A DNA stretch of 31,841 nucleotides from a virus (Duplodnaviria; Heunggongvirae; Uroviricota; Caudoviricetes): positions 1 to 31,841 of IMG/VR virus record IMGVR_UViG_2558860161_000007; one strand, given 5' to 3'. Every line of letters starts with the position of its first letter. Within the stretch, counting starts at the first letter, position 1. Shown piece by piece: positions 8,520 to 31,841 of this stretch. The notes beneath the pieces are model-generated. The model saw only the letters and a program-made list of their open reading frames with translations. It was not told the DNA's origin and searched no databases. The translations under genes and the position numbers were made by a program.

Positions 8520-9353
8520 TCAGCAATTGGTCAGAGTGTCAGCGGGGGCGTTACCGCCTGTTGCACGCTGGCGGTAGTCCTGGCGGCTGTCTACATGACT
8601 CAGCTTATTCACCAGTTCGTTAAAGGCGGTCTGCTGTGCCTGCAGGGCAGTCTCCAGCTCAGACAGACGTTCTTCCTGCTCAGACAGGGATTTTTCGGTG
8701 CGTGCGCTCAGGTTCTGCTGCTCAGTGGCGACCAGCTCCACGGCCTTATGCACATCAGAGAACCGGGCGTCATCGGACTGCTCTTTTTTGGTAAACAGCG
8801 CCGTGACGCGGGCAAACAGGGACGGTTTGTCGTCCTGGACTTCTTCCAGTTCGATCACCGTTTCCTCTGCGGCGGTAAAGAGATTGGCGGGATTCTGCTT
8901 GCGGTTTGCCAGCGGGTTATGGGCTGCACTGGCGCTGAATGTCAGCATTTCAGTGCCCAGACTGGCAGGGTCATCAGTGGCAGCCAGGCCGACCAGGTAG
9001 GCTTTGCCCGTATCAGCGAACTTCGGGCTGACTTCCATAGAGGTGAATAATTTCTGGCCTTTTTTCACCAGCTCCACCAGGGACTCCGTTGGCTCAACGT
9101 CGGCATACAGCGCCATCTTGCCTGCCAGCGGACCTTCCGTGATTTCTTCAGCAAACAGCGCCGTCACCTTGCCGTAGCGGTTAAAGGTGCTGTCCGGCAG
9201 ATAAGACTTGATGTGCTCAAGGTTAATCAGCGCGGTATACACCGCCGGGTTATAGCTGGCTGCCATCTGTTCCAGCCATTCACGCTGGATTTCGCGTCCG
9301 TCGGTGGTGGCACCTTCCACCCCGATGCGAAAACGCTTTGCTTTCACTGTCAT
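8520..9353 (-). CDS. O: Capsid scaffolding protein O (P2 gpO-like)
   Basis: 277-aa ORF; acidic coiled-coil C-terminus; first gene of the leftward late operon, divergent from P. Confidence 0.85.
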   Translation of the reverse strand: MTVKAKRFRIGVEGATTDGREIQREWLEQMAASYNPAVYTALINLEHIKSYLPDSTFNRYGKVTALFAEEITEGPLAGKMALYADVEPTESLVELVKKGQKLFTSMEVSPKFADTGKAYLVGLAATDDPASLGTEMLTFSASAAHNPLANRKQNPANLFTAAEETVIELEEVQDDKPSLFARVTALFTKKEQSDDARFSDVHKAVELVATEQQNLSARTEKSLSEQEERLSELETALQAQQTAFNELVNKLSHVDSRQDYRQRATGGNAPADTLTNC

Positions 9354-9431
9354 GAGCCGTGCTCCGTTAGAAAAAACTTACTGGAGCCTTATGGTTGCGG
9401 TGATAGGGGCAGTGAAACAATGCGCGGTATT

Positions 9432-9449
9432 TGTACCGACAACCACACA
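9432..9449. promoter_or_regulatory. TGT-N12-ACA dyad (candidate late-promoter activator site) in the O/P divergent intergenic region
   Basis: Sequence tgtaccgacaaccacaca read directly; geometry fits a late promoter for the O operon. Confidence 0.4.
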
Positions 9450-9495
9450 AACCGCAGGCGGGGAAAGCCTTCATTCAAGGCTGTAGGTTTGTGCC

Positions 9496-11262
9496 ATGAA
9501 CACCACACTGACACCCGCAGATCTCGATCCCCGTCGGCAGGCCATGCTGCTGTACTTTCAGGGATACCGCGTCGCCCGCATTGCTGAAATGCTGGGCGAG
9601 AAAGTTGCAACCGTTCACAGCTGGAAAAAACGCGACAAGTGGGGTGACTATGGGCCGCTGGATCAGATGCAGCTCACCACCGCCGCACGCTACTGCCAGC
9701 TCATTATGAAGGAGCACAAAGAAGGGAAAGATTTCAAAGAAATTGACCTGCTGGCGCGCCAGTCGGAGCGCCACGCGCGGATCGGCAAGTTTAACAATGG
9801 CGGCAACGAAGCCGACTTAAACCCTAACGTCGCCAACCGCAACAAAGGCCCGCGCCGTCAGCCGGAAAAGAATGTTTTCACCGATGAGCAGATTGAGAAG
9901 CTGGAAGAAATCTTCCATTCCTCCATGTTTAACTACCAGCGCCACTGGTGGGAAGCCGGAAAAACCAACCGCATCCGCAACCTGCTGAAGTCACGCCAGA
10001 TCGGCGCGACCTTTTACTTTGCCCGTGAAGCCCTGATTGACGCTCTGCTTACCGGACGTAACCAGATTTTTCTTTCCGCCAGCAAGGCACAGGCTCACGT
10101 CTTTAAGCAGTACATCATAGACTTCGCCAAAGAAGTCGAGGTGGAGCTGAAAGGCGATCCGATGGTGCTTCCTAACGGAGCCACGCTTTACTTCCTCGGC
10201 ACCAATGCCCGCACGGCCCAGAGTTACCACGGCAACCTGTATCTGGATGAATATTTCTGGATACCGAAATTCCAGGAACTGCGCAAAGTTGCCTCCGGGA
10301 TGGCCATTCACAAGAAATGGCGACAAACCTACTTTTCCACGCCGTCCAGCCTTACCCACAGTGCCTATCCGTTCTGGTCCGGTGCGCTGTTTAACCGGGG
10401 CCGCGCCAAAGCGGACAAGGTGGATATTGACCTGACCCACAGCAATCTTGCGCGCGGCCTGCTCTGCCCTGACGGACAGTACCGCCAGATCGTCACCGTG
10501 GAGGATGCGGTGCGCGGCGGCTGTAACCTGTTCGACCTCGACCAGCTGCGCATGGAGTACAGCCCGGACGAATACCAGAACCTGCTGATGTGCGAATTTA
10601 TTGACGATTTGGCGTCAGTATTCCCGCTCAGCGAACTGCAGGCATGCATGGTGGACAGCTGGGAAGTCTGGACCGATTTTCAGGCTCTGGCGCTGCGCCC
10701 GTTTGGCTGGCGCGAGGTCTGGATCGGATACGACCCGGCGAAAGGCACGCAGAACGGTGACAGCGCCGGGTGCGTGGTGGTGGCACCGCCAGCCGTGCCG
10801 GGCGGCAAGTTCCGCATTCTGGAGCGACACCAGTGGCGCGGGATGGACTTCCGCGCCCAGGCTGACGCCATTAAAAAACTGACGCAGCAGTACAACGTGA
10901 CATACATCGGTATCGACTCGACCGGCGTTGGTCACGGGGTTTATGAGAACGTGAAAGCGTTCTTTCCTGCCGTGCGGGAGTTTGTCTACAACCCCAACGT
11001 CAAAAACGCCCTGGTGCTCAAGGCCTACGACATCATCAGCCACCGCCGTCTGGAGTTTGACGCCGGACACACTGACATTGCGCAGTCATTCATGGCAATC
11101 CGTCGCGCAACCACCGCCAGCGGCAACCGCCCGACCTATGAAGCCAGCCGCAGCGAAGAAGCCAGCCACGCCGATCTGGCCTGGGCAACAATGCACGCAC
11201 TGTTTAACGAACCGCTGCAGGGCGAATCCGCCAATACCAGCAATATTGTGGAGATTTTTTGA
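9496..11262 (+). CDS. P: Terminase large (ATPase) subunit P (P2 gpP-like)
   Basis: 588-aa ORF, nearly the P2 P length; Walker-A-like KSRQIGAT motif; overall resemblance. Confidence 0.9.
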   Translation: MNTTLTPADLDPRRQAMLLYFQGYRVARIAEMLGEKVATVHSWKKRDKWGDYGPLDQMQLTTAARYCQLIMKEHKEGKDFKEIDLLARQSERHARIGKFNNGGNEADLNPNVANRNKGPRRQPEKNVFTDEQIEKLEEIFHSSMFNYQRHWWEAGKTNRIRNLLKSRQIGATFYFAREALIDALLTGRNQIFLSASKAQAHVFKQYIIDFAKEVEVELKGDPMVLPNGATLYFLGTNARTAQSYHGNLYLDEYFWIPKFQELRKVASGMAIHKKWRQTYFSTPSSLTHSAYPFWSGALFNRGRAKADKVDIDLTHSNLARGLLCPDGQYRQIVTVEDAVRGGCNLFDLDQLRMEYSPDEYQNLLMCEFIDDLASVFPLSELQACMVDSWEVWTDFQALALRPFGWREVWIGYDPAKGTQNGDSAGCVVVAPPAVPGGKFRILERHQWRGMDFRAQADAIKKLTQQYNVTYIGIDSTGVGHGVYENVKAFFPAVREFVYNPNVKNALVLKAYDIISHRRLEFDAGHTDIAQSFMAIRRATTASGNRPTYEASRSEEASHADLAWATMHALFNEPLQGESANTSNIVEIF

Positions 11263-19721: not shown

Positions 19722-19773
19722 GATTCAATATTTGATACATCGAGATACTACGATCCAATATTTGATACGTCAA
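19722..19773. promoter_or_regulatory. Two direct repeats (caatatttgatac) in the repressor/lytic divergent promoter region; candidate operator sites
   Basis: ttcaatatttgatacatc and tccaatatttgatacgtc, ~30 bp apart, between the apl and cI starts. Confidence 0.4.
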
Positions 19774-19785
19774 CAGGATTAAGAA

Positions 19786-20418
19786 ATGATACAGGTAAAA
19801 GCTGGCGAGAATACAGGGGGAAGAGAGGCTATCCATAGACTAATGGCAGCCTATGATTTCAAGTCCAGACAGCAACTTTGCGATCACTTAGGCGCATCAA
19901 AAAGCACTATGGCAAACAGATACTTAAGAGATAGCTTTCCCGCAGAGTGGGTGATTCAGTGCGCCTTGGAAACAGGAGTTTCTTTACTGTGGCTAACCAC
20001 CGGACAAGGCGAACCAGGTTCAAACATTGACCCTAAAAAAAATATCAATTCTGTGAACTCCAGCAGGGTTAAACCTCTTTCTGAGCTTGTATCTCCTGAA
20101 ATTGACAAGGCAACTCTCAACGGTGGTTTATTGGTCGATGCTGGAAAAGCAATCATTGATAGCAGCATACTCCCCTCAGACTCAAGCAACCTGCTGCTGG
20201 TGAGTACTTCTGGTGATTCTTATTTAATAGATCGCAACCAAACACCACCAGTAAATGGTACGTGGTTAGTGGACATCGACGGGATAAAAAGCATTGTAAA
20301 ATTGACACGACTCCCGGGAAACAGATTAGTAGTGCATCAGGATGATTCATCGTTTGAGTGCGAACTGGATGACATTGAGGTAATAGGTCGCGCACTGAAA
20401 ATCATTAAGAGCCTTTGA
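19786..20418 (+). CDS. cI: CI-like immunity repressor
   Basis: 210-aa ORF upstream of and co-directional with int, divergent from apl; the N-terminal region looks like an HTH. Confidence 0.75.
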   Translation: MIQVKAGENTGGREAIHRLMAAYDFKSRQQLCDHLGASKSTMANRYLRDSFPAEWVIQCALETGVSLLWLTTGQGEPGSNIDPKKNINSVNSSRVKPLSELVSPEIDKATLNGGLLVDAGKAIIDSSILPSDSSNLLLVSTSGDSYLIDRNQTPPVNGTWLVDIDGIKSIVKLTRLPGNRLVVHQDDSSFECELDDIEVIGRALKIIKSL

Positions 20419-20419
20419 T

Positions 20420-21445
20420 ATGACCATCAGAAAACAGCCGAACGGAAAGTGGTTATGTGAATGCTACCCAAACGGGAGAGATGGCAAACGCGTACGCAAA
20501 CAATTTGCGACGAAAGGCGAAGCCATTGCGTTTGAGAATTTCACCATGGATGAGGTAAACAAGAAACCTTGGCTGGGAGAAAAGGAAGATCGGCGACAAC
20601 TGTCAGAAGTGATTGAGCAATGGTATTCCCTGTACGGTCAGACACTCGCTGACCCTAAGCGATTAATGGCTAAGTTAAAAATCATTTGTAATGGACTTGG
20701 CGATCCCATCGCTTCTGAATTGACAGCAGGTGATTTCACAAAGTACCGGGAAGCCAGATTAAAAGGTGAGGTCAAAAACGAAGATGGCGTGCTCATGTCA
20801 CCGGTTAAGCCCAGAACGGTGAACCTTGAACAGCGTAACCTATCCTCAGTTTTTGGCACACTGAAAAAGCTGGGACATTGGTCTGCACCCAACCCCCTCG
20901 CCGGTCTGCCAACTTTCAAAATTGCAGAAGGTGAACTGGCGTTCCTTGCTGCTGATGAAATCAAACGCCTGCTTGACGCATGTGCTGAATCTCAAAGTCC
21001 CAGTCTGCTAATGATTGCCAAGATTTGCCTGGCTACCGGGGCAAGATGGAGCGAAGCCGAAAACCTGCAAGGTAACCAGATATCAAAGTATCGAATTACC
21101 TATACCAAAACAAAAGGAAAGAAAAACCGAACTGTTCCTATTTCTCAGGAACTGTATGAAGAATTACCCAAAAACAGAGGAAAGTTATTCACACCATGCC
21201 GAAAGGCTTTTGAGCGTGCGGTAAAACGAGCTGGAATTGAACTACCTGAAGGTCAATGTACCCACGTTCTGCGCCACACTTTCGCCAGTCACTTTATGAT
21301 GAACGGCGGAAACATTTTGGTATTGAGGGATATTTTAGGACACGCTGATATTAAAATGACCATGATTTATGCCCATTTTGCACCGGATCATCTGGAAGAT
21401 GCCGTTACCAAAAATCCACTTCATAACCTCAACTGGCATCGCTAA
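20420..21445 (+). CDS. int: Tyrosine integrase (P2/186 family)
   Basis: 341-aa ORF; C-terminal catalytic region HVLRHTFASHF...LGHADIKMTMIYAH with the conserved R, H-x-x-R and Y; adjacent to the att core. Confidence 0.9.
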   Translation: MTIRKQPNGKWLCECYPNGRDGKRVRKQFATKGEAIAFENFTMDEVNKKPWLGEKEDRRQLSEVIEQWYSLYGQTLADPKRLMAKLKIICNGLGDPIASELTAGDFTKYREARLKGEVKNEDGVLMSPVKPRTVNLEQRNLSSVFGTLKKLGHWSAPNPLAGLPTFKIAEGELAFLAADEIKRLLDACAESQSPSLLMIAKICLATGARWSEAENLQGNQISKYRITYTKTKGKKNRTVPISQELYEELPKNRGKLFTPCRKAFERAVKRAGIELPEGQCTHVLRHTFASHFMMNGGNILVLRDILGHADIKMTMIYAHFAPDHLEDAVTKNPLHNLNWHR

Positions 21446-21562
21446 TAAATGGCGGCATTTTGGCGGCAGAACACTAAAAACAAGTAAAACAAGCAAATAC
21501 AGACTAACACTAACACAATGATTTAAAATAAAAAAATATGATTTTGTTAGTATAAAAATGGT

Positions 21563-21607
21563 ATGTAGGAATTTCGGACGCGGGTTCAACTCCCGCCAGC
21601 TCCACCA
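21563..21607 (+). other. ssrA: Attachment-site core identical in character to the 3' end of tmRNA (ssrA), ending ...GGTTCAACTCCCGCCAGCTCCACCA
   Basis: The ~45-nt atgtaggaatttcggacgcgggttcaactcccgccagctccacca matches my recollection of the enterobacterial tmRNA 3' terminus; upstream is AT-rich phage DNA and the int stop, so only a 3' fragment is present. Confidence 0.65.
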
Positions 21608-21791: not shown

Positions 21792-22991
21792 GTGGCACGG
21801 ACAACTCGCCCCCTAACCAACACCGAAGTTCTGCGCGCGAAAGCGTTAGAGAAGGATCTAACGCTGCATGATGGTGATGGGCTTTTCCTGATAGTGAAAA
21901 CTAGCGGCAAGAAACTCTGGCGCTTTCGCTATCAACGCCCAGCAACAAAACAACGGACTATGATGGGACTTGGTGCTTTTCCTGCCCTTTCTCTTGCTGA
22001 TGCCCGAGGGTTAAGAGCAGATTACCTTGCCCTATTAGCCAACGGAATCGACCCGCAAATTCAAGCTGAAGTTGCAGAGGAACAGCAGCAAATCGCTCTG
22101 GACAGTATTTTTTCGACGGTCGCCGCTAACTGGTTCCAGCTCAAAAGCAAAAGCGTTACCCCTGATTACGCTAAAGATATATGGCGTTCACTGGAAAAAG
22201 ACGTATTTCCAGCTATCGGTGAGACCCCTGTCCAGCAAATCAAAGCCCGAACACTGGTTGAAGCCCTTGAACCGATCAAAGCACGTGGGGCGCTGGAGAC
22301 AGTTCGTAGACTGGTACAGCGTATCAACGAAATAATGATTTATGCGGTTAACACTGGCTTGATTGATGCCAACCCCGCATCAGGTATTGGTATGGCTTTT
22401 GAGAAACCCAAAAAGCAAAACATGCCGACGTTGCGACCAGAAGAATTGCCTAAGCTGATGCGTTCGCTAGTCATGTCAAATCTATCTGTTCCGACTCGCT
22501 GTCTTATTGAGTGGCAACTCCTGACGCTCGTGCGCCCTTCTGAGGCTTCAGGTGCTCGATGGGCTGAGATCGATCTCAATGCCAAACTCTGGACAATTCC
22601 AGCCGAACGAATGAAAGCTAAACGTGAACATATAGTACCTCTATCTACACAGGCGTTAGAGATTCTAGAAGTGATGAAGCCAATCAGTGCTCATCGCGAA
22701 CATGTTTTTCCGAGCAGGAACGACCCCAAAAAATCAATGAACAGCCAAACGGCAAACGCTGCCTTAAAACGCATAGGCTATGGAGGTAAGCTTGTTGCTC
22801 ATGGTCTACGTTCTATAGCGAGTACAGCTCTTAATGAAAATGGTTTTAATCCAGATGTAATTGAAGCAGCATTAGCACATTCGGATAAGAATGAAGTAAG
22901 ACGTGCATATAATCGTTCTACCTATTTAGAACAACGTCATGAGTTAATGAATTGGTGGGGTTGTAAAGTTTGCCCTACCAATTCATTATAA
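21792..22991 (+). CDS. int: Tyrosine integrase (P4/CP4-57 family) of the satellite element
   Basis: 399-aa ORF (GTG start); N-terminal arm-binding-type region (GDGLFLIV...KLWRFRY) and C-terminal catalytic region (AHGLRS...ALAHSDKNEVRRAYNRSTY). Confidence 0.9.
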   Translation: MARTTRPLTNTEVLRAKALEKDLTLHDGDGLFLIVKTSGKKLWRFRYQRPATKQRTMMGLGAFPALSLADARGLRADYLALLANGIDPQIQAEVAEEQQQIALDSIFSTVAANWFQLKSKSVTPDYAKDIWRSLEKDVFPAIGETPVQQIKARTLVEALEPIKARGALETVRRLVQRINEIMIYAVNTGLIDANPASGIGMAFEKPKKQNMPTLRPEELPKLMRSLVMSNLSVPTRCLIEWQLLTLVRPSEASGARWAEIDLNAKLWTIPAERMKAKREHIVPLSTQALEILEVMKPISAHREHVFPSRNDPKKSMNSQTANAALKRIGYGGKLVAHGLRSIASTALNENGFNPDVIEAALAHSDKNEVRRAYNRSTYLEQRHELMNWWGCKVCPTNSL

Positions 22992-23002
22992 GATAAAACA
23001 GA

Positions 23003-24421
23003 TCATACTTTACCGGGGTATGTTTTAAACATACTCCTTAATACGTCAAATGTCTGTTCACCTATGATTGAAAATTCTTTAATCATTTCCATTAAGTTAT
23101 TTCGGCTAATCAAGAAAATATACAAACCTTGATCTTTCGATATTTCTTTCACTCTATCAAGATACTTTTCCTCGGCAGAATTTTCGCAGAATATTAAACC
23201 TATCTTAGAATTACATTCTTCGACTTTTCTAAGTGTAGTATAAATATGTTCCTCGTTCAATTTATGCTGAGGATCAATGACATTTACAACTATCAACTCT
23301 GAAATAATGTTGTACACTGAAAAATCGAAAAAGAAACCTTTCTTAGCCTCATTAATTAATGAAAAGAGGCAGCACTGTTCATCCTCACTTATTAATTTGG
23401 GGTAAAACAAGCTAGGATAGAAGATTGAAATCAATATTTTCTTGTATGCTTTAGTGTAATTACTAAAGTCGTTGTTTTTAATTGATAAATCAATATCTTT
23501 CATTAGATCTTTTATGGGGAGAATTACAGGATCTTCATCCTTATCAAAATCACTATGCGCTAGAGGATTCGGAGGATTAATCTCCAGCTCTTTTTTATAT
23601 TCTTTCAAGGTGTTAGGGTATTTTACGAGCTGAGACTCGATAAATCCCTTAGTCTGACCATACTCATCAATGATACTTGTTGTGGTAACAATCCGCTCCC
23701 CTTTAAGCACTTTAACTAATGCCGAGCCAGAGCTTATCAATTCCTTTTTCATTTCCGGAATAATATGCCTCCGATATAAATCCCTATGTGAATAGATTAT
23801 CTCTTCACGTGCAAGTATCTTAGGAATAAGGATAATCTCCTCGCCTTCATAAACAGGGAGATGAAAACGATTTTTATGCCATTTACTACTAACCTTATCC
23901 CACGTTTTGACTTCTGAAACCTCTTTAGTCTCAATGCCGTAAAATATACAAATATCCTTTGTATATTCTATAAAAAAACCTTTGAGAATATTACAAACTG
24001 AATCCGATATTCGGTCAGAACCAATACCTGGGATAGTCAGAGCTGTATCTTCTAGATCAGTTAATATTCCTGATTTTGCAGCCTGACTACTCTTTAGAGA
24101 ATCCAAAATATCTTCAGCAGTTTTTTCACCAAGAGCAGTTCCGGATGATTCTTTTGTTGAATATCCTAAATGAAAGGCATTGGTCTCTCTTAGTGATGAC
24201 AATAAATAAGCAGCTTTTTTAAAATTATTATTCTTTATAGACGCCATTATTTCTGTAAAATAGTCTTGTAACGCGTAAACTAAATCCTGCCCCCATTGGG
24301 ATTTTAAAACCTTTATAGATGTTGGATCTAAAAAAAACCTTAAATCAGTATGCAGAGGAATATCCAAAAAATCTAACGCTACTTGTCTGCCTTCAACTCC
24401 AAAAGCCTCTGAAAACCTCAT
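23003..24421 (-). CDS. Hypothetical AT-rich cargo protein (~472 aa) in the satellite int-cos hotspot
   Basis: ORF 23003..24448; likely start is the ATG at ~24421 with a GGAG Shine-Dalgarno. GC is markedly lower than its neighbours, it is convergent with int, and I recognise no domain by eye. Confidence 0.55.
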   Translation of the reverse strand: MRFSEAFGVEGRQVALDFLDIPLHTDLRFFLDPTSIKVLKSQWGQDLVYALQDYFTEIMASIKNNNFKKAAYLLSSLRETNAFHLGYSTKESSGTALGEKTAEDILDSLKSSQAAKSGILTDLEDTALTIPGIGSDRISDSVCNILKGFFIEYTKDICIFYGIETKEVSEVKTWDKVSSKWHKNRFHLPVYEGEEIILIPKILAREEIIYSHRDLYRRHIIPEMKKELISSGSALVKVLKGERIVTTTSIIDEYGQTKGFIESQLVKYPNTLKEYKKELEINPPNPLAHSDFDKDEDPVILPIKDLMKDIDLSIKNNDFSNYTKAYKKILISIFYPSLFYPKLISEDEQCCLFSLINEAKKGFFFDFSVYNIISELIVVNVIDPQHKLNEEHIYTTLRKVEECNSKIGLIFCENSAEEKYLDRVKEISKDQGLYIFLISRNNLMEMIKEFSIIGEQTFDVLRSMFKTYPGKV

Positions 24422-24566
24422 GTAACACTCCTTTACAATAATCAACATAAAAACAAGAGCATTCTTATTTTTATAGCAAAGGTGGTTTAATCACAAGATC
24501 TTATGAATTGAGCAACAATAATTATCCCTATTTTTTGAAGCTGACGAACATTTCACGTTGCGTACA

Positions 24567-25061: not shown

Positions 25062-25637
25062 TTATGCGGATTTTTTGCGGGTCTGCGCGGCCTGTCGGCG
25101 CATGAAAATCTGACTCTGTTCAGGCGTATATTTTGCCCGGTTGTCGTCTCTCGATGCTCTGTCAGGCCGGAAACCGATGGTTGTCAGAATGTCGCGATCA
25201 TCCTCTGCGTAATCAATATTTCCTCCGCGGGTTACATAAACGGACAGCGCTTCGCGAACACTGGCGGCCGCCCGGTCGAGAGCACGTTCTCTGACAATGT
25301 CAGGTTGTTCGCTGAGATGCATTAATTCCGGTGCCAGTGCGGCGGCCAGCGCGTCGCCGCTTACCTGCATAAAGGCGTGGAGCTGACACCGGATACTGAT
25401 ACGCTGCACGGCCTCATGTGACCGGATGTACTGCCCGGCCGACTGATTTACCGCCCATTTTTTCAGGTCAATATCATCCCGCAGCGCCTGTGCGGCCTCC
25501 GGTTCATAACGGGTGCAGGTCAGCTCCAGCTCCTTCAGCGCCATTTCTGCCCGCGCCAGTGCTGACTTGCTGCTCATCCAGTCCGATTTATTCTTCTGAC
25601 AGGTTTCAAAGGCCTGTTCCAGTAGTGCTCGTGCCAT
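25062..25637 (-). CDS. psu: Psu-like polarity suppression / capsid decoration protein
   Basis: 191-aa ORF; conserved AGQYIRSHEAVQ.ISIR and ILTTIGFRPD segments, as I recall for P4 Psu (190 aa). Confidence 0.8.
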   Translation of the reverse strand: MARALLEQAFETCQKNKSDWMSSKSALARAEMALKELELTCTRYEPEAAQALRDDIDLKKWAVNQSAGQYIRSHEAVQRISIRCQLHAFMQVSGDALAAALAPELMHLSEQPDIVRERALDRAAASVREALSVYVTRGGNIDYAEDDRDILTTIGFRPDRASRDDNRAKYTPEQSQIFMRRQAAQTRKKSA

Positions 25638-25653: not shown

Positions 25654-25896
25654 TCAGTGGCGCAGCGATGACCGGGCGCAGTCCAGAATTCGGGGCGGTG
25701 TTTCTGGTACTGTTTGTGGTGGTTCGGGCTTTTCTTCTGCCGGTGGCCGTATCACCTCGTCGATAGACTCGGTGGTGCGAAAGGTTGCGGAGCAAAAGAC
25801 ATTCACGCACTGGAGGTAGCTCTGTTTGACGTTATCTGACAGGTAACGGCTGGTACGGACATGGGCAGCCTGTTTGCAGTACGGGCAGCGCATCAT
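25654..25896 (-). CDS. delta: Delta/Ogr-family zinc-finger late transcription activator
   Basis: 80-aa ORF starting MMRCPYC with CPYC...C..C..CSATF, the hallmark of Ogr/Delta. Confidence 0.85.
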   Translation of the reverse strand: MMRCPYCKQAAHVRTSRYLSDNVKQSYLQCVNVFCSATFRTTESIDEVIRPPAEEKPEPPQTVPETPPRILDCARSSLRH

Positions 25897-26696
25897 GGCT
25901 TAACCCCCCGCGTTTTTTTCTTCTGTGCCAGCTCTTTAGCCCGCGCCATTCTGAGAACAGGGCTTTTATAGAGTTTCATATCCACGCCGGTGAGTGCCGG
26001 ACGGTGAAGCCCAATTTTTGAAATTACTGGTTCATGCTCCATGTTGAATGTGTAGTACCTGCTTTGCGCCAGTACATTCTCACCCAGCTCCTGAATGAGA
26101 ACGTTGTGAGGGTGTTCTTCTCCCTTAATCTCGAGCTCACGCAGACGTAACGCAAATGCGCGCACCAGTGAGGGAGGGATGTCTTTCATCACGGTCGCCC
26201 ACTCATTCCGGGAGTAGGCAGAGAACACCGTAAAATGCGTGCCGACGTACTTATCTCCTGATGTACAGGCGGACAGCATGGTACTGGCCTTATCATCGTT
26301 GAGTTCATCAATCAGGGCGGTGAATTCCTCCGCCAGCTCCCGACCGGCCACTCGCTGACTGTGTTCGGCTTTCAGTTCCGGGGTCATCATGCCGCGCAGT
26401 TCGCGAAAACGGGTACGCCAGTTCTGTTCGGCTTCGGCACTTTCATTCAGGGCGTTCTGACGCTCTTTCTCACTGCGGGCAATGGCCGCATCAATATCAT
26501 TCAGCTTCAGCATGTTTTCCGTGTGCGCGGATTTGGCCTTGCTGAACACATCAAGAGCGTTATTTATCGTGGCCTCGGCGTTCTGGTTTGCTTTCTCGTT
26601 AAGGGTATCCAGTGCGCTGTCAATGGCCGTGCGGATGTTCTCATCCTGCGTGCTGCCGATGGTTTTCATTACTGCGGTAAACAAATCTGGTTTCAT
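25893..26696 (-). CDS. sid: Sid-like capsid size determination protein (putative)
   Basis: 267-aa helical/charged protein in the sid position of the psu-delta-sid operon; assigned by synteny and character, not strong sequence recall. Confidence 0.5.
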   Translation of the reverse strand: MKPDLFTAVMKTIGSTQDENIRTAIDSALDTLNEKANQNAEATINNALDVFSKAKSAHTENMLKLNDIDAAIARSEKERQNALNESAEAEQNWRTRFRELRGMMTPELKAEHSQRVAGRELAEEFTALIDELNDDKASTMLSACTSGDKYVGTHFTVFSAYSRNEWATVMKDIPPSLVRAFALRLRELEIKGEEHPHNVLIQELGENVLAQSRYYTFNMEHEPVISKIGLHRPALTGVDMKLYKSPVLRMARAKELAQKKKTRGVKP

Positions 26697-26770
26697 CGTC
26701 GGGTTCTCTCTGTGTTTTCAACCTGACGCCATTCTGCCGTCCCTCAGACAACAACTCGATTCATTGCCGT

Positions 26771-26788
26771 TGTAGCAGACATGGCACA
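26771..26788. promoter_or_regulatory. TGT-N12-ACA dyad upstream of the sid operon (candidate Psid activator site)
   Basis: tgtagcagacatggcaca, ~83 bp upstream of the sid-like start. Confidence 0.4.
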
Positions 26789-26864
26789 AACAGGACTTAA
26801 AAACCCGGCTGGCCAGAGAAAGGTCGCAGGAAACCCCCTCTCTCTGTTTGTTTTTTTACATATA

Positions 26865-26970
26865 ACTATTCACTACTGTTCACTCAGAATAAAAATATAA
26901 GTAAAACAATAAATTAAAGAGTGAACAGTTGAGAGGGAAGTGTTCACCAACTGTTCACTACTGTTCACTG
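26865..26970. promoter_or_regulatory. Cluster of CTGTTCAC repeats (five or more copies, both orientations) in the satellite divergent regulatory region
   Basis: ctattcactactgttcactcag ... gagtgaacagttgag ... tgttcaccaactgttcactactgttcactgg, read directly. Confidence 0.35.
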
Positions 26971-27247
26971 GTCTGAACATCCCGAATGTAAATTTTATGC
27001 GGTATGTCCTATTAATTCATGCTGTTAGGGTGATTAAATCAATTTGCATTTCACTTTTGAAATCTCCAGTGCCTTATAACTCCTTCCAGTGCCTTTAAAT
27101 GGTCTTGAGTAAAAAAACAGCACCCGTTGTCCCGTGCTTTGTACAATTTCCCCCTGTTGCATTGAGAAAAAATATTCACAAAATAGAGCGCTACCTGATA
27201 CCGGACGGACACGTCCGGATCTCTGCGGATATTAACGAGGTAGCGTT

Positions 27248-27514
27248 ATGCACACAGTTTCATCAGTACCATCGTCCCCCACAACCGCGCACCTGATGCC
27301 GGTTTCAGCCCCGGCTCAGGAACGTTTTTTACGTCTCCCGGAAGTCATTCATCAGTGCGGTCTGTCCCGCTCCACGCTCTACGATTTAATTGCCCGCAAT
27401 GCTTTCCCGGCGCAGGTTTCCCTCGGGGGTAAAAATGTCGCCTGGCTGCAGTCTGAAATCACAGCGTGGATGGCAGAACGTGTCGCGCACCGCAACCGGA
27501 AATACGACGCATGA
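27248..27514 (+). CDS. AlpA/Vis-family HTH transcriptional regulator
   Basis: 88-aa ORF containing [29 protein letters not shown], the AlpA-type helix-turn-helix; GAGG Shine-Dalgarno upstream. Confidence 0.7.
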
Positions 27515-27549: not shown

Positions 27550-27665
27550 TTGCATCCGTTGTGTGTTTCCTGGTACAGTTTTGTCGCTGTCGCAAAATCG
27601 ACAGCCGGGCGTGGAAACCCGAGCAACTCGAAGGCGACACCAGACGCGCCATGCGTCTTTTTTTG
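27550..27665 (+). ncRNA. Candidate small structured RNA (promoter-hairpin-terminator unit) in the satellite immunity-region position
   Basis: TTGCAT-18 bp-TACAGT promoter-like hexamers, hairpin gctgtcg-caaaat-cgacagc, then stem agacgc-gccat-gcgtct followed by TTTTTTT; the long overlapping ORFs here lack convincing starts. Confidence 0.3.
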
Positions 27666-27912
27666 TGTCGCAACTAACGCCACAGAGCGCCAGATAATGG
27701 CGTGGTGTGCGGATCGTCGTGCAGACGTCACTTTGTGTCTCCTGTCCGCAATCGCATATCATGCTGTCATGTCAATGGTAGCTCAGGCGGGGCAGCCCTC
27801 GGGCTGGCCGGTATTCTTCGAGGCCGGTATTTCCACCCCCGTCTGGGCTATCGCCACTGAGCGTGGAAACTCCGGCGATAGCAATAATTTGCTACTCGAA
27901 GGAGGTTGCCTT

Positions 27913-28915: not shown

Positions 28916-29176
28916 ATGCCTGTTAACAGTACGGAACGGCCGCAGAATACAAACCAGCCCATCATCAGCCGGGCAGACCTTGAATGTCTCGAACATATGC
29001 GCAACGTCGGCCAGCTCGTCGGCGACCTGATGCAGGTGCAGGACTGCACCTCTTTGCGCCACAACCCGGCGCAGCAACTACAGCTCACCTCGGTGATTTA
29101 CCTCATGACTGCCCGGCTCGACGGCGTGGTCGACCGCTGTAATCAGCGCTGGCTGACCGGGGAGGGCAACGTATGA
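28916..29176 (+). CDS. Hypothetical protein (86 aa)
   Basis: ATG (MPVNSTERP...) preceded by AGGAGA; a perfect hairpin gtgcgtatc-N8-gatacgcac lies just upstream. Confidence 0.45.
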
Positions 29177-29493
29177 AAAAGCCATTAACGCCCGTCTTAC
29201 GCGCCGCGCTCTATCGCCGTGCGGTCGCCTGTGCCTGGCTGACCCTGTGCGAAAGTCAGCACCGCTACCCGCAGCTCACGCTCAGTACGCTGGAAAGCGC
29301 CATTGCGACCGAGCTGGAGGGCTTCTACCTGCGCCAGCACGGCGAGGAAAAAGGCCGCCAGATTGCCTGTGCCCTGCTCGAAGATTTAATGGAAGCCGGA
29401 CCACTCAAGGCCGCCCCGTCGCTGTCCTTTCTCGGGCTGGCCGTGATGGATGAACTCTGCGCCCGCCATATCACCGCACCGGTACTGCACTGA
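29173..29493 (+). CDS. Hypothetical protein (106 aa)
   Basis: Start overlaps the previous stop (ATGA); immediately upstream of the primase gene. Confidence 0.5.
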
Positions 29494-29507: not shown

Positions 29508-31841
29508 ATGAAAATGAACGTAACGGACACCGTAAAACAGGCGTGCGGCCACTGGCCGCGCATTCTCCCTGCGCTGGGTGTAACGGTCATCAAAAACCGC
29601 CATCAGGCCTGTCCGGTGTGTGGCGGCTCCGACCGCTTTCGCTTTGATGATAAAGAGGGACGCGGGACGTGGTTCTGCAATCAGTGCGGCGCGGGTGACG
29701 GGCTTAAGCTGGTAGAAAAAGTGTTCGGCGTGACCCCGTCAGAGGCCGCCGGGAAGGTGAACGCCGTGACCGGCAACCTGCCGCCGGTTTCCCCGGCGGT
29801 GACTGCGGCCGCAGACGCTGAAACAGAGGCAGACCGCAAAGCGGCGGCCGCGCTGGCCGTAAAACTGACGGAGAAAGCCCGACCGGTCACCGGCAACGCC
29901 TACCTCACCCGCAAGGGCTTCCCCGGCCGGGAATGCCTGACGCTCACCGCCCTGCACAAAACCGGCGGTGTGACGTACCGCGCCGGGGATGTGGTTGTCC
30001 CGCTTTATGATGATAGCGGCGCACTGGTTAACGTCCAGCTCATTAACGCGGACGGTCTCAAGCGCACCCTGAAAGGCGGTCAGGTAAAAGGGGCATGTCA
30101 TATTCTCGACGGAAAAAAAGAGGCGGGAAAGCGGCTGTGGATAGCGGAGGGCTACGCGACCGCGCTCACCGTGCATCACCTGACCGGCGAAACCGTCATG
30201 GTGGCGCTGTCGTCGGTGAACCTCCTTTCTCTGGCGAGCCTTGCCCGTCACACATACCCGGCCTGCCGGATTGTGCTGGCCGCCGACCGTGACCTCAGCG
30301 GCGACGGCCAGACCAAAGCGTCTGCGGCCGCAGAAGCCTGTGAGGGCGTGGTCGCCCTGCCGCCGGTGTTCGGTGACTGGAATGATGCGTATACACAGCA
30401 CGGCGGGGAGGCCACGCGTAAAGCCATGTATGACGCCATCCGGCCACCGGCTGACAGCCCTTTCTCTACCATGAGCGAGGCGGAGTTTACCGCCATGAGC
30501 ACCAGTGAGAAAGCCATGCGGGTGCATGAGCATTACGGCGAAGCGCTGGCGGTGGATGCGAACGGCCAGCTCCTGTCCCGTTATGAGGCGGGCATATGGA
30601 AAATCATTCCGCCGTCGGACTTTGCGCGCGACGTGGCCGGGCTGTTTCAGCGTCTGCGCGCCCCGTTCTCATCGGGAAAAATTGCCTCGGTGGTGGACAC
30701 CCTGAAACTGATTATTCCCCAGCAGGACGCCCCGCCACGGCGGCTGATTGGTTTTCGCAACGGGGTGCTCGATACCAAAAGCGGTATATTCAGCCCGCAC
30801 AGCAAAACGCACTGGCTGCGCACCCTGTGTGACGTGGATTTCACCCCGCCGGTGGAGGGGGAAACGCTGGAGACGCACGCGCCGAATTTCTGGCGCTGGC
30901 TCGACCGCGCCGCCGGTTCGCGTGCCGATAAACGTGACGTGATACTCGCCGCGCTGTTTATGGTGCTGGCGAACCGTTACGACTGGCAGCTCTTCCTCGA
31001 AGTGACCGGTCCCGGCGGCAGCGGGAAAAGTATTCTGGCCGAAATTGCGACCATGCTCGCCGGGGAAGATAACGCCACGTCGGCGACTATCGAGACGCTG
31101 GAATCCCCCCGCGAACGCGCGGCGCTGATTGGCTTCTCGCTGATACGTCTGCCTGACCAGGAGAAATGGAGCGGTGACGGGGCAGGACTCAAGGCCATCA
31201 CCGGCGGCGATGCGGTCTCCGTCGACCCGAAATACCGCGATGCATACTCCACCCATATTCCGGCGGTGATACTGGCCGTGAACAATAACCCGATGCGCTT
31301 CACCGACCGCAGCGGCGGGGTGTCCCGTCGCCGGGTGATAATGCACTTCCCGGAACAGATTGCCCCGGAAGAGCGTGACCCGAAGCTGAAAGATAAAATC
31401 GCCCGGGAGCTGGCCGTCATCGTGCGCCAGCTCATGCAGACGTTCAGCGACCCGATGACCGCGCGCACACTGCTCCAGTCGCAGCAGAACTCCGACGAGG
31501 CACTCAGCATCAAGCGCGACGCTGACCCGACATTCGATTTTTGTGGCTATCTGGAGGCACTGCCCGAGCCTGACGGTATGTATATGGGGAATGCGAATAT
31601 CATCCCGCGACAGCCGCGCCTGTACCTGTATCACGCCTATCTGGTCTACATGGAGGCGCACGGCTACAAGAACACACTCAGCCTGACCATGTTCGGCAAA
31701 GGACTGTCATCGATGCTGAAAGAGTACGGGCTGAATTACGGTAAGCGACGAACAAATCAGGGGATACAGACGAACCTTGCGCTCAGGGAGGAAAGCAACG
31801 CCGACTGGCTGCCCCGGTGCGATGAAACCACCGCGACATAA
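29508..31841 (+). CDS. alpha: Alpha-type primase/helicase (zinc-binding primase domain + TOPRIM-like + SF3-type P-loop NTPase)
   Basis: 777-aa ORF, the P4 alpha length as I recall it; N-terminal CPVCGG...CNQCG zinc motif; central acidic region LAADRDLSGDGQ; Walker A GPGGSGKS; stop at the window end. Confidence 0.9.
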   Translation: MKMNVTDTVKQACGHWPRILPALGVTVIKNRHQACPVCGGSDRFRFDDKEGRGTWFCNQCGAGDGLKLVEKVFGVTPSEAAGKVNAVTGNLPPVSPAVTAAADAETEADRKAAAALAVKLTEKARPVTGNAYLTRKGFPGRECLTLTALHKTGGVTYRAGDVVVPLYDDSGALVNVQLINADGLKRTLKGGQVKGACHILDGKKEAGKRLWIAEGYATALTVHHLTGETVMVALSSVNLLSLASLARHTYPACRIVLAADRDLSGDGQTKASAAAEACEGVVALPPVFGDWNDAYTQHGGEATRKAMYDAIRPPADSPFSTMSEAEFTAMSTSEKAMRVHEHYGEALAVDANGQLLSRYEAGIWKIIPPSDFARDVAGLFQRLRAPFSSGKIASVVDTLKLIIPQQDAPPRRLIGFRNGVLDTKSGIFSPHSKTHWLRTLCDVDFTPPVEGETLETHAPNFWRWLDRAAGSRADKRDVILAALFMVLANRYDWQLFLEVTGPGGSGKSILAEIATMLAGEDNATSATIETLESPRERAALIGFSLIRLPDQEKWSGDGAGLKAITGGDAVSVDPKYRDAYSTHIPAVILAVNNNPMRFTDRSGGVSRRRVIMHFPEQIAPEERDPKLKDKIARELAVIVRQLMQTFSDPMTARTLLQSQQNSDEALSIKRDADPTFDFCGYLEALPEPDGMYMGNANIIPRQPRLYLYHAYLVYMEAHGYKNTLSLTMFGKGLSSMLKEYGLNYGKRRTNQGIQTNLALREESNADWLPRCDETTAT

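Follow-up and report, generated by a model that had tools for sequence, protein, structure and literature searches.

The replication origin (ori) of the satellite phage P4 (GenBank X51522, rep_origin 9086-9809) lies between sid and ORF88/vis and contains six copies of the octamer TGTTCACC, arranged around an AT-rich spacer. A second cluster, the cis replication region (crr), follows the alpha gene and consists of two 120-bp repeats with five type I iterons each. The P4 alpha protein reportedly shows specific binding to the type I iterons of both ori and crr; as a P4-type initiator, in which a primase is fused to an SF3 helicase, it needs no DnaA, DnaB or DnaG. To the right of the P4 ori iterons stand three tandem 10-bp type 2 repeats (TGNCTTTAA), which presumably resemble the Cox boxes of the helper phage; we know of no requirement for them in alpha binding. 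A functional parallel is found in the iteron-type plasmid origins of pSC101, R6K, P1 and F, which combine repeats of ~17-22 bp with a Rep_3/RepA-type initiator and DnaA boxes.

The locus described here belongs to a P4-like satellite on a 31,841-nt stretch of viral DNA (the window). It is a cluster of TGTTCAC copies between the start of the sid-position gene (26696, minus strand) and that of a vis-like gene (27248). The satellite carries the following features:

21792-22991, plus strand: satellite integrase gene (int)
23003-24448, minus strand: 481-aa ORF between int and psu, 31-38% G+C against ~52% for the window, no Pfam match
25062-25637, minus strand: Psu (Pfam Psu)
25654-25896, minus strand: Ogr/Delta zinc-finger protein (Pfam Ogr_Delta)
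25893-26696, minus strand: sid-position gene
27248-27514, plus strand: 88-aa AlpA/Vis-like protein (Pfam AlpA)
27586-27663, plus strand: isrK, downstream of vis (Rfam, 73.9 bits)
27771-27858, plus strand: C4 antisense RNA family, downstream of vis (Rfam, 76.1 bits)
29173-29493, plus strand: 106-aa DUF5375 gene at the position of P4 ORF106 (cnr) (Pfam DUF5375, E = 1e-63)
29508-31841, plus strand: alpha, a 777-aa primase-helicase-origin-binding initiator and putative iteron binder

We take the C4 antisense RNA family to include the CI immunity RNA of P4, and 27586-27858 to be the immunity-RNA region. The int-psu position, occupied here by the 481-aa ORF, is the one at which P4-like satellites carry variable anti-phage cargo.

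An exact motif search placed TGTTCAC at 26877, 26941, 26952 and 26962 on the plus strand and at 26921 on the minus strand, and a one-mismatch copy, TATTCAC, begins at 26867 on the plus strand. The array at 26867-26969 thus holds six TGTTCAC(Y) copies, five exact and one TATTCAC, in the order + + - + + +. The first-pass annotation had described at least five copies of (c)tgttcac within ~105 bp, with a tandem pair and an inverted copy, in an AT-rich region between the sid operon and the AlpA/Vis-like gene; this description holds for the 26696-27248 interval and now extends to a sixth, one-mismatch copy. The AT content is 67% over 26836-26970 and 86% in the spacer, against 48% window-wide. In detail, the array reads:

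26867-26874, plus strand: iteron 1, TATTCACT, with A for G at position 2; aligns with P4 "ori type 1 repeat" 9406-9413
26877-26884, plus strand: iteron 2, TGTTCACT, starting 10 bp after iteron 1; aligns with P4 type 1 repeat 9396-9403
26885-26919, no strand: AT-rich spacer of 35 bp, 86% AT, separating the left iteron pair from the inverted iteron
26920-26927, minus strand: iteron 3, inverted, AGTGAACA on the plus strand and TGTTCACT on the minus strand; aligns with P4's single inverted type 1 repeat, 9353-9360
26941-26948, plus strand: iteron 4, TGTTCACC, exactly the P4 octamer; aligns with P4 type 1 repeat 9331-9338
26952-26959, plus strand: iteron 5, TGTTCACT, starting 11 bp after iteron 4; aligns with P4 type 1 repeat 9320-9327
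26962-26969, plus strand: iteron 6, TGTTCACT, starting 10 bp after iteron 5; aligns with P4 type 1 repeat 9310-9317

Neighbouring direct iterons are therefore spaced by 10-11 bp from start to start, about one helical turn. Across the whole 31.8-kb window TGTTCAC occurs 12 times against 3.9 expected, a count reached in 0 of 100 shuffles, and five of the 12 copies fall within 92 bp. With the rate outside the cluster as Poisson background, the probability of at least five copies in 106 bp is 6e-11, or 1.7e-8 when corrected for ~300 windows. A further one-mismatch sequence, CTGAACA at 26973-79, is common to the closest relatives only and was left uncounted.

A sensitive blastn search with region 26600-27300 matched P4 X51522 at 9018-9550 (68.6% identity over ~530 bp, E = 3e-37); elsewhere among 50,697 phage records there was one short match of 107 bp, in a single record. 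The P4 annotation under the match comprises "origin of DNA replication", six "ori type 1 repeat" and three "ori type 2 repeat" features, and both loci have sid and ORF88/vis as gene neighbours. In the pairwise alignment the six P4 type 1 repeats stand in register with the six window copies, alike in order, orientation and spacing. The locus thus combines the octamer set and arrangement of a P4-type ori with sequence homology, the sid-vis position, the AT-rich spacer and a cis-encoded alpha that carries an origin-binding domain. Several points differ: position 8 of the octamer, C in P4, is T in all but one of the six window copies, copy 1 reads TATTCAC, and rightward of the last iteron the two sequences are unrelated. 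The window element also differs from P4 in being an integrated prophage, in another host, that adjoins a P2/186-type prophage.

Judged from these sequence comparisons, the array is very probably the ori of a P4-like satellite prophage, with its octamers as the counterparts of the P4 type I iterons. The P4-type ori is already described and conserved, and the feature is accordingly a known one and not an unnamed operator. The first-pass annotation did not recognise the motif under any name, and the octamer does have one: it is the P4 type I iteron, which the P4 record labels "ori type 1 repeat". Its view of the cluster as an iteron-like array in a P4-like satellite stands, while its placing of the array in a regulatory region gives way to this identity. 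By analogy with P4, the octamers would serve replication initiation rather than transcriptional regulation, and the origin would be expected to fire in this element as it does in P4. The repeat cluster should therefore be annotated as a P4-like satellite replication origin and not as an unidentified regulatory operator.

The presumptive initiator is closely related to that of P4: alpha of the window shares 652 of 777 residues (84%) with P4 alpha. Its residues 671-770 (~nt 31518-31817) match PDB 1KA8 (E = 3.8e-45; deposition title "putative P4-specific DNA primase") and form the winged-helix origin-binding domain; 1KA8 is the solved P4 origin-binding domain (2002, Mol Microbiol 43:855). The Pfam domains of the protein are Zn_Ribbon_Prim, Toprim_3, D5_N, DUF5906 and Pox_D5. 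Given the P4 background and the GenBank annotation, we infer that alpha binds the octamers in this element as well, in line with the first-pass annotation, which had listed the primase among its candidate binders. Directly upstream of alpha lies the DUF5375 gene, in the same position as ORF106 in X51522. ORF106 is cnr, a copy-number regulator acting on the origin-binding domain of alpha.

We then examined the conservation of the array. A scan for alpha proteins with one genome per bacterial species yielded 61 loci from many Enterobacterales genera, and ori could be assessed in 37 of them, namely those with 2.69 kb or more of sequence upstream of alpha and a full-length alpha of 77% identity or higher. 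All 37 contain an ori cluster, with at least three exact TGTTCAC copies within 120 bp, located 1.5-2.7 kb upstream of alpha and nearly always in the pattern '+-+++' or '++-+++'; elsewhere in these loci the motif occurs at 0.2 per kb. A motif search across P4-like elements, which had been suggested as a check on the initial description, thus finds the cluster conserved throughout the assessable relatives.

Within the array, conservation was followed as the majority-base frequency in an alignment of 34 distinct ori sequences. The iteron cores reach 0.99, a value that for iterons 3 and 4 is inflated, partly by construction, because both anchored the selection of sequences for alignment; position 8 of the octamer stands at 0.68. 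The short linkers between adjacent copies score 0.84, the linker at 26928-26940 0.76, the AT spacer 0.86 and the right flank 0.52. The left flank (26836-26866), although not part of any iteron, is also conserved (0.84). TATTCAC, as found in iteron 1, is the majority form of copy 1 among the 34 aligned relatives. A 52-aa ORF that overlaps the iterons (26940-27098) was dismissed as non-coding, given the lack of conservation to their right.

Since the final base of the window is the end of the alpha stop codon, evidence for a crr comes from the relatives. Of 45 loci, 33 have a cluster at the crr position, no more than 300 bp after the alpha stop and typically starting 54-58 bp past it; L002, L003 and L006, the three closest, are among the 33. 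Counting clusters anywhere downstream, the figure is 39 of 45. Its pattern, '-++--', is that of the annotated 120-bp P4 crr unit read in the orientation of alpha. The relatives of the window element thus share the octamer of the P4 crr and carry at least one unit ~55 bp past the alpha stop, but most have one unit where P4 has two, and the array in the window itself corresponds to the ori cluster. Two crr-like units, or a unit displaced to 0.4-2 kb after alpha, were seen in some loci (among L008, L009, L029, L038 and L049). In L051, alpha breaks off at residue 440 and runs straight into a crr unit. These arrangements point to frequent rearrangement around crr.

A mechanism can be proposed by transfer from P4. 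Alpha would bind the octamers through its C-terminal winged-helix origin-binding domain and, because the direct copies are about one helical turn apart, several molecules could align along the same face of the helix, to the left and right of the 86% AT spacer. The helicase of alpha would then open the duplex at the spacer, its primase domain would lay primers, and host DNA polymerase III would complete bidirectional theta replication. The second iteron cluster past the alpha stop, crr, would be needed in cis, with alpha bridging crr to ori, and the Cnr-like protein encoded just upstream of alpha would limit copy number via the alpha origin-binding domain.

The array is flanked by two dyads that bear on alternative readings:

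26771-26788, no strand: TGT-N12-ACA dyad on the sid side, outside the array; P4 has an identical dyad at the aligned position
27128-27145, no strand: TGT-N12-ACA dyad on the vis (PLL) side, outside the array; aligns with the equivalent P4 dyad

Ogr/Delta activator sites of the P2/P4 late promoters (Psid, PLL) take this form, and the two copies here probably mark divergent late promoters, one toward sid and one toward vis. The iterons lie in a promoter-free interval bounded on the left by the sid-side dyad. As both dyads are conserved with P4, the array is best read as the P4 ori placed between divergent late promoters and outside both promoter modules. The octamers themselves were considered as an Ogr/Delta site, a TGT-N12-ACA dyad centred ~55 bp upstream of a late start, and rejected: their nearest TGT...ACA pairing spans 45 nt.

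This layout raises the question of whether the array has a second role, in which it would be an alpha-bound origin whose occupancy by alpha or Cnr-alpha also modulates Psid and PLL and couples replication to late expression. The origin is embedded between two divergent activator-dependent promoters, an arrangement kept in all relatives, and the conserved left flank lies outside the iterons. No sigma-70 consensus promoter was found in 26600-27350, where one terminator-like match stands at chance level, and this is consistent with activator-dependent promoters. Against such coupling speak the large distances from the array to the inferred start sites, and we know of no report of a coupling of this kind for P4. 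On balance we regard it as unlikely.

A purely transcriptional reading, with the octamers as operators of the AlpA/Vis-like protein (27248-27514) controlling the divergent Psid and PLL, fares worse. It draws on the position of the array in the sid-vis intergenic region, on the membership of the vis product in the AlpA family of helix-turn-helix proteins and on P4 Vis, which reportedly represses PLL and stimulates Psid. Moreover, in elements that keep the motif, Vis is conserved about as well as the alpha origin-binding domain; the two diverge at similar rates across the relatives, so that this comparison does not separate the candidate binders. The positions of the motif speak against Vis. A second cluster lies right after alpha, 2.5-5 kb from vis and any late promoter. 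Relative to the inferred starts, the array itself covers about -140 to -245 for Psid and -220 to -325 for PLL, upstream of both TGT-N12-ACA activator sites and not at operator positions. Vis reportedly also has two binding boxes in the interval from int to the attP core, but TGTTCAC is absent from the int-att interval of P4 (3927-4077) and, in the window, from the stretch that separates the att copy (21560-21606) from int (21792). Finally, the variant-octamer modules described below adjoin a primase gene and have no adjacent vis homologue. Together these observations make Vis a very improbable owner of the sites, and of the binders first listed, which also included a host factor, the primase is the one retained, on the strength of the crr cluster, the int-att intervals and the array position.

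Even less probable is that the octamers are bound by a host factor, DnaA or IHF for example, or by a helper phage protein. A P2/186-type prophage does adjoin the satellite in the window, and P2 Cox binds upstream of P4 PLL. TGTTCAC, however, is unlike the DnaA box and the IHF consensus, and the Cox-box-like repeats of P4 are separate features, the type 2 repeats further right. In distant elements, moreover, the octamer changes with the primase, unlike a host-factor site, which would be expected to be shared across Enterobacterales. The chance that the cluster is a random or low-complexity product of an AT-rich intergenic region is negligible, given a corrected P of ~2e-8, a motif that is itself 43% G+C and its exact presence in 37/37 relatives while neighbouring bases vary.

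The type 2 repeats of P4 were not reproduced in the window by the pairwise alignment. At their position (27065-27096) there are instead two copies of TCCAGTGCCTT, 20 bp apart; a search of the switch and att regions of the adjacent helper-type prophage, allowing up to one mismatch, found no copy. Among the relatives, variability within the region is highest between the iterons and the PLL-side dyad. Lack of type 2 repeats does not disqualify the array as a P4-type ori, because alpha binding has no known need of them.

To the plasmid origins with RepA/pi-type initiators the array bears a functional likeness without being a member of that group. Phased direct repeats, an element-encoded winged-helix initiator and an adjoining AT-rich stretch are common to both, as are the pairing of the origin with a second set of iterons and a link of that set to copy-number control. 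The repeats here, however, are 8 bp long, and the sole initiator-like gene encodes a primase-helicase. A further difference is that the second cluster of P4 is required for replication and is not purely inhibitory.

In more distant elements the octamer changes with the primase. Where alpha is ~58% identical (L043-L045, L053), the ori and crr positions hold TGTTCAC or the degenerate forms TATTCAC, TGTTCAT and TGGTCAC. In two Raoultella loci (L059 and L060) and one from Scandinavium (L063), whose primases are 46-50% identical over the C-terminal half and ~40% in the origin-binding domain, the octamer is T(A/G)TCTACC or TGTCTACC, in modules that directly follow the primase gene:

L059, 5915-6052: variant-octamer module
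L060, 5915-6052: variant-octamer module
L063, 5890-6140: variant-octamer module

Each module resembles the array in layout, with direct copies, an AT spacer, one inverted copy and then 3-4 direct copies ~10 bp apart; it differs in its octamer and in adjoining the 3' side of the primase gene instead of lying between sid and vis. An initiator-iteron pair would be expected to show just such a joint change of octamer and primase DNA-binding domain. The spacer core, TAA(A/T)ACA(A/G)TAA(A/G)TTAA (26900-26917 in the window), recurs in P4 and in the L059/L060 modules, and the spacer at 26885-26919 is a candidate site of initial duplex opening. Tentatively, P4-like satellites may fall into replication-specificity groups in which octamer and alpha origin-binding domain are switched together while the spacer core is retained, a scheme that we consider possible but doubtful. 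If it were true, the spacer would be a separate functional site, such as a fixed unwinding or first-priming point or a host-factor site, and iteron type would be a compatibility determinant between co-resident satellites. Octamer switching with a retained spacer core might be the sole part of this analysis that is new, and it lies mostly outside the window. The ori assignment itself opens no new question; what is mildly new is the comparative change of octamer with primase while the layout is kept.

The practical use of the assignment lies in annotation. Of 5,426 complete E. coli genomes, 1,114 carry an alpha-like gene; P4-like islands are thus very common, and identification of ori aids their annotation. 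The pair of ori and crr iteron clusters offers a simple sequence signature for whether a P4-like island could still replicate.

The remainder of the window is a potential helper. Positions 1-21606 (the first 21.5 kb) form a P2/186-type prophage with genes for a P2-family capsid, GPO scaffold, gpP terminase, portal, GPA replication protein and Dam methylase, and with the following genes near its right end:

19786-20418: 186-type CI repressor of the P2/186-type prophage
20420-21445: integrase of the P2/186-type prophage

A copy of the ssrA/tmRNA 3' end (...GGACGCGGGTTCAACTCCCGCCAGCTCCACCA, 21560-21606) lies between this integrase and the satellite int, and for this reason the potential helper and the satellite appear to be arranged in tandem at one attachment site; the window contains no tRNA gene and no complete tmRNA gene. 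Just upstream of the helper-type CI repressor gene, the direct repeat CAATATTTGATAC occurs at 19726-19738 and 19756-19768, 30 bp apart, and these two copies may be operators of the lysis-lysogeny switch of the helper-type prophage.
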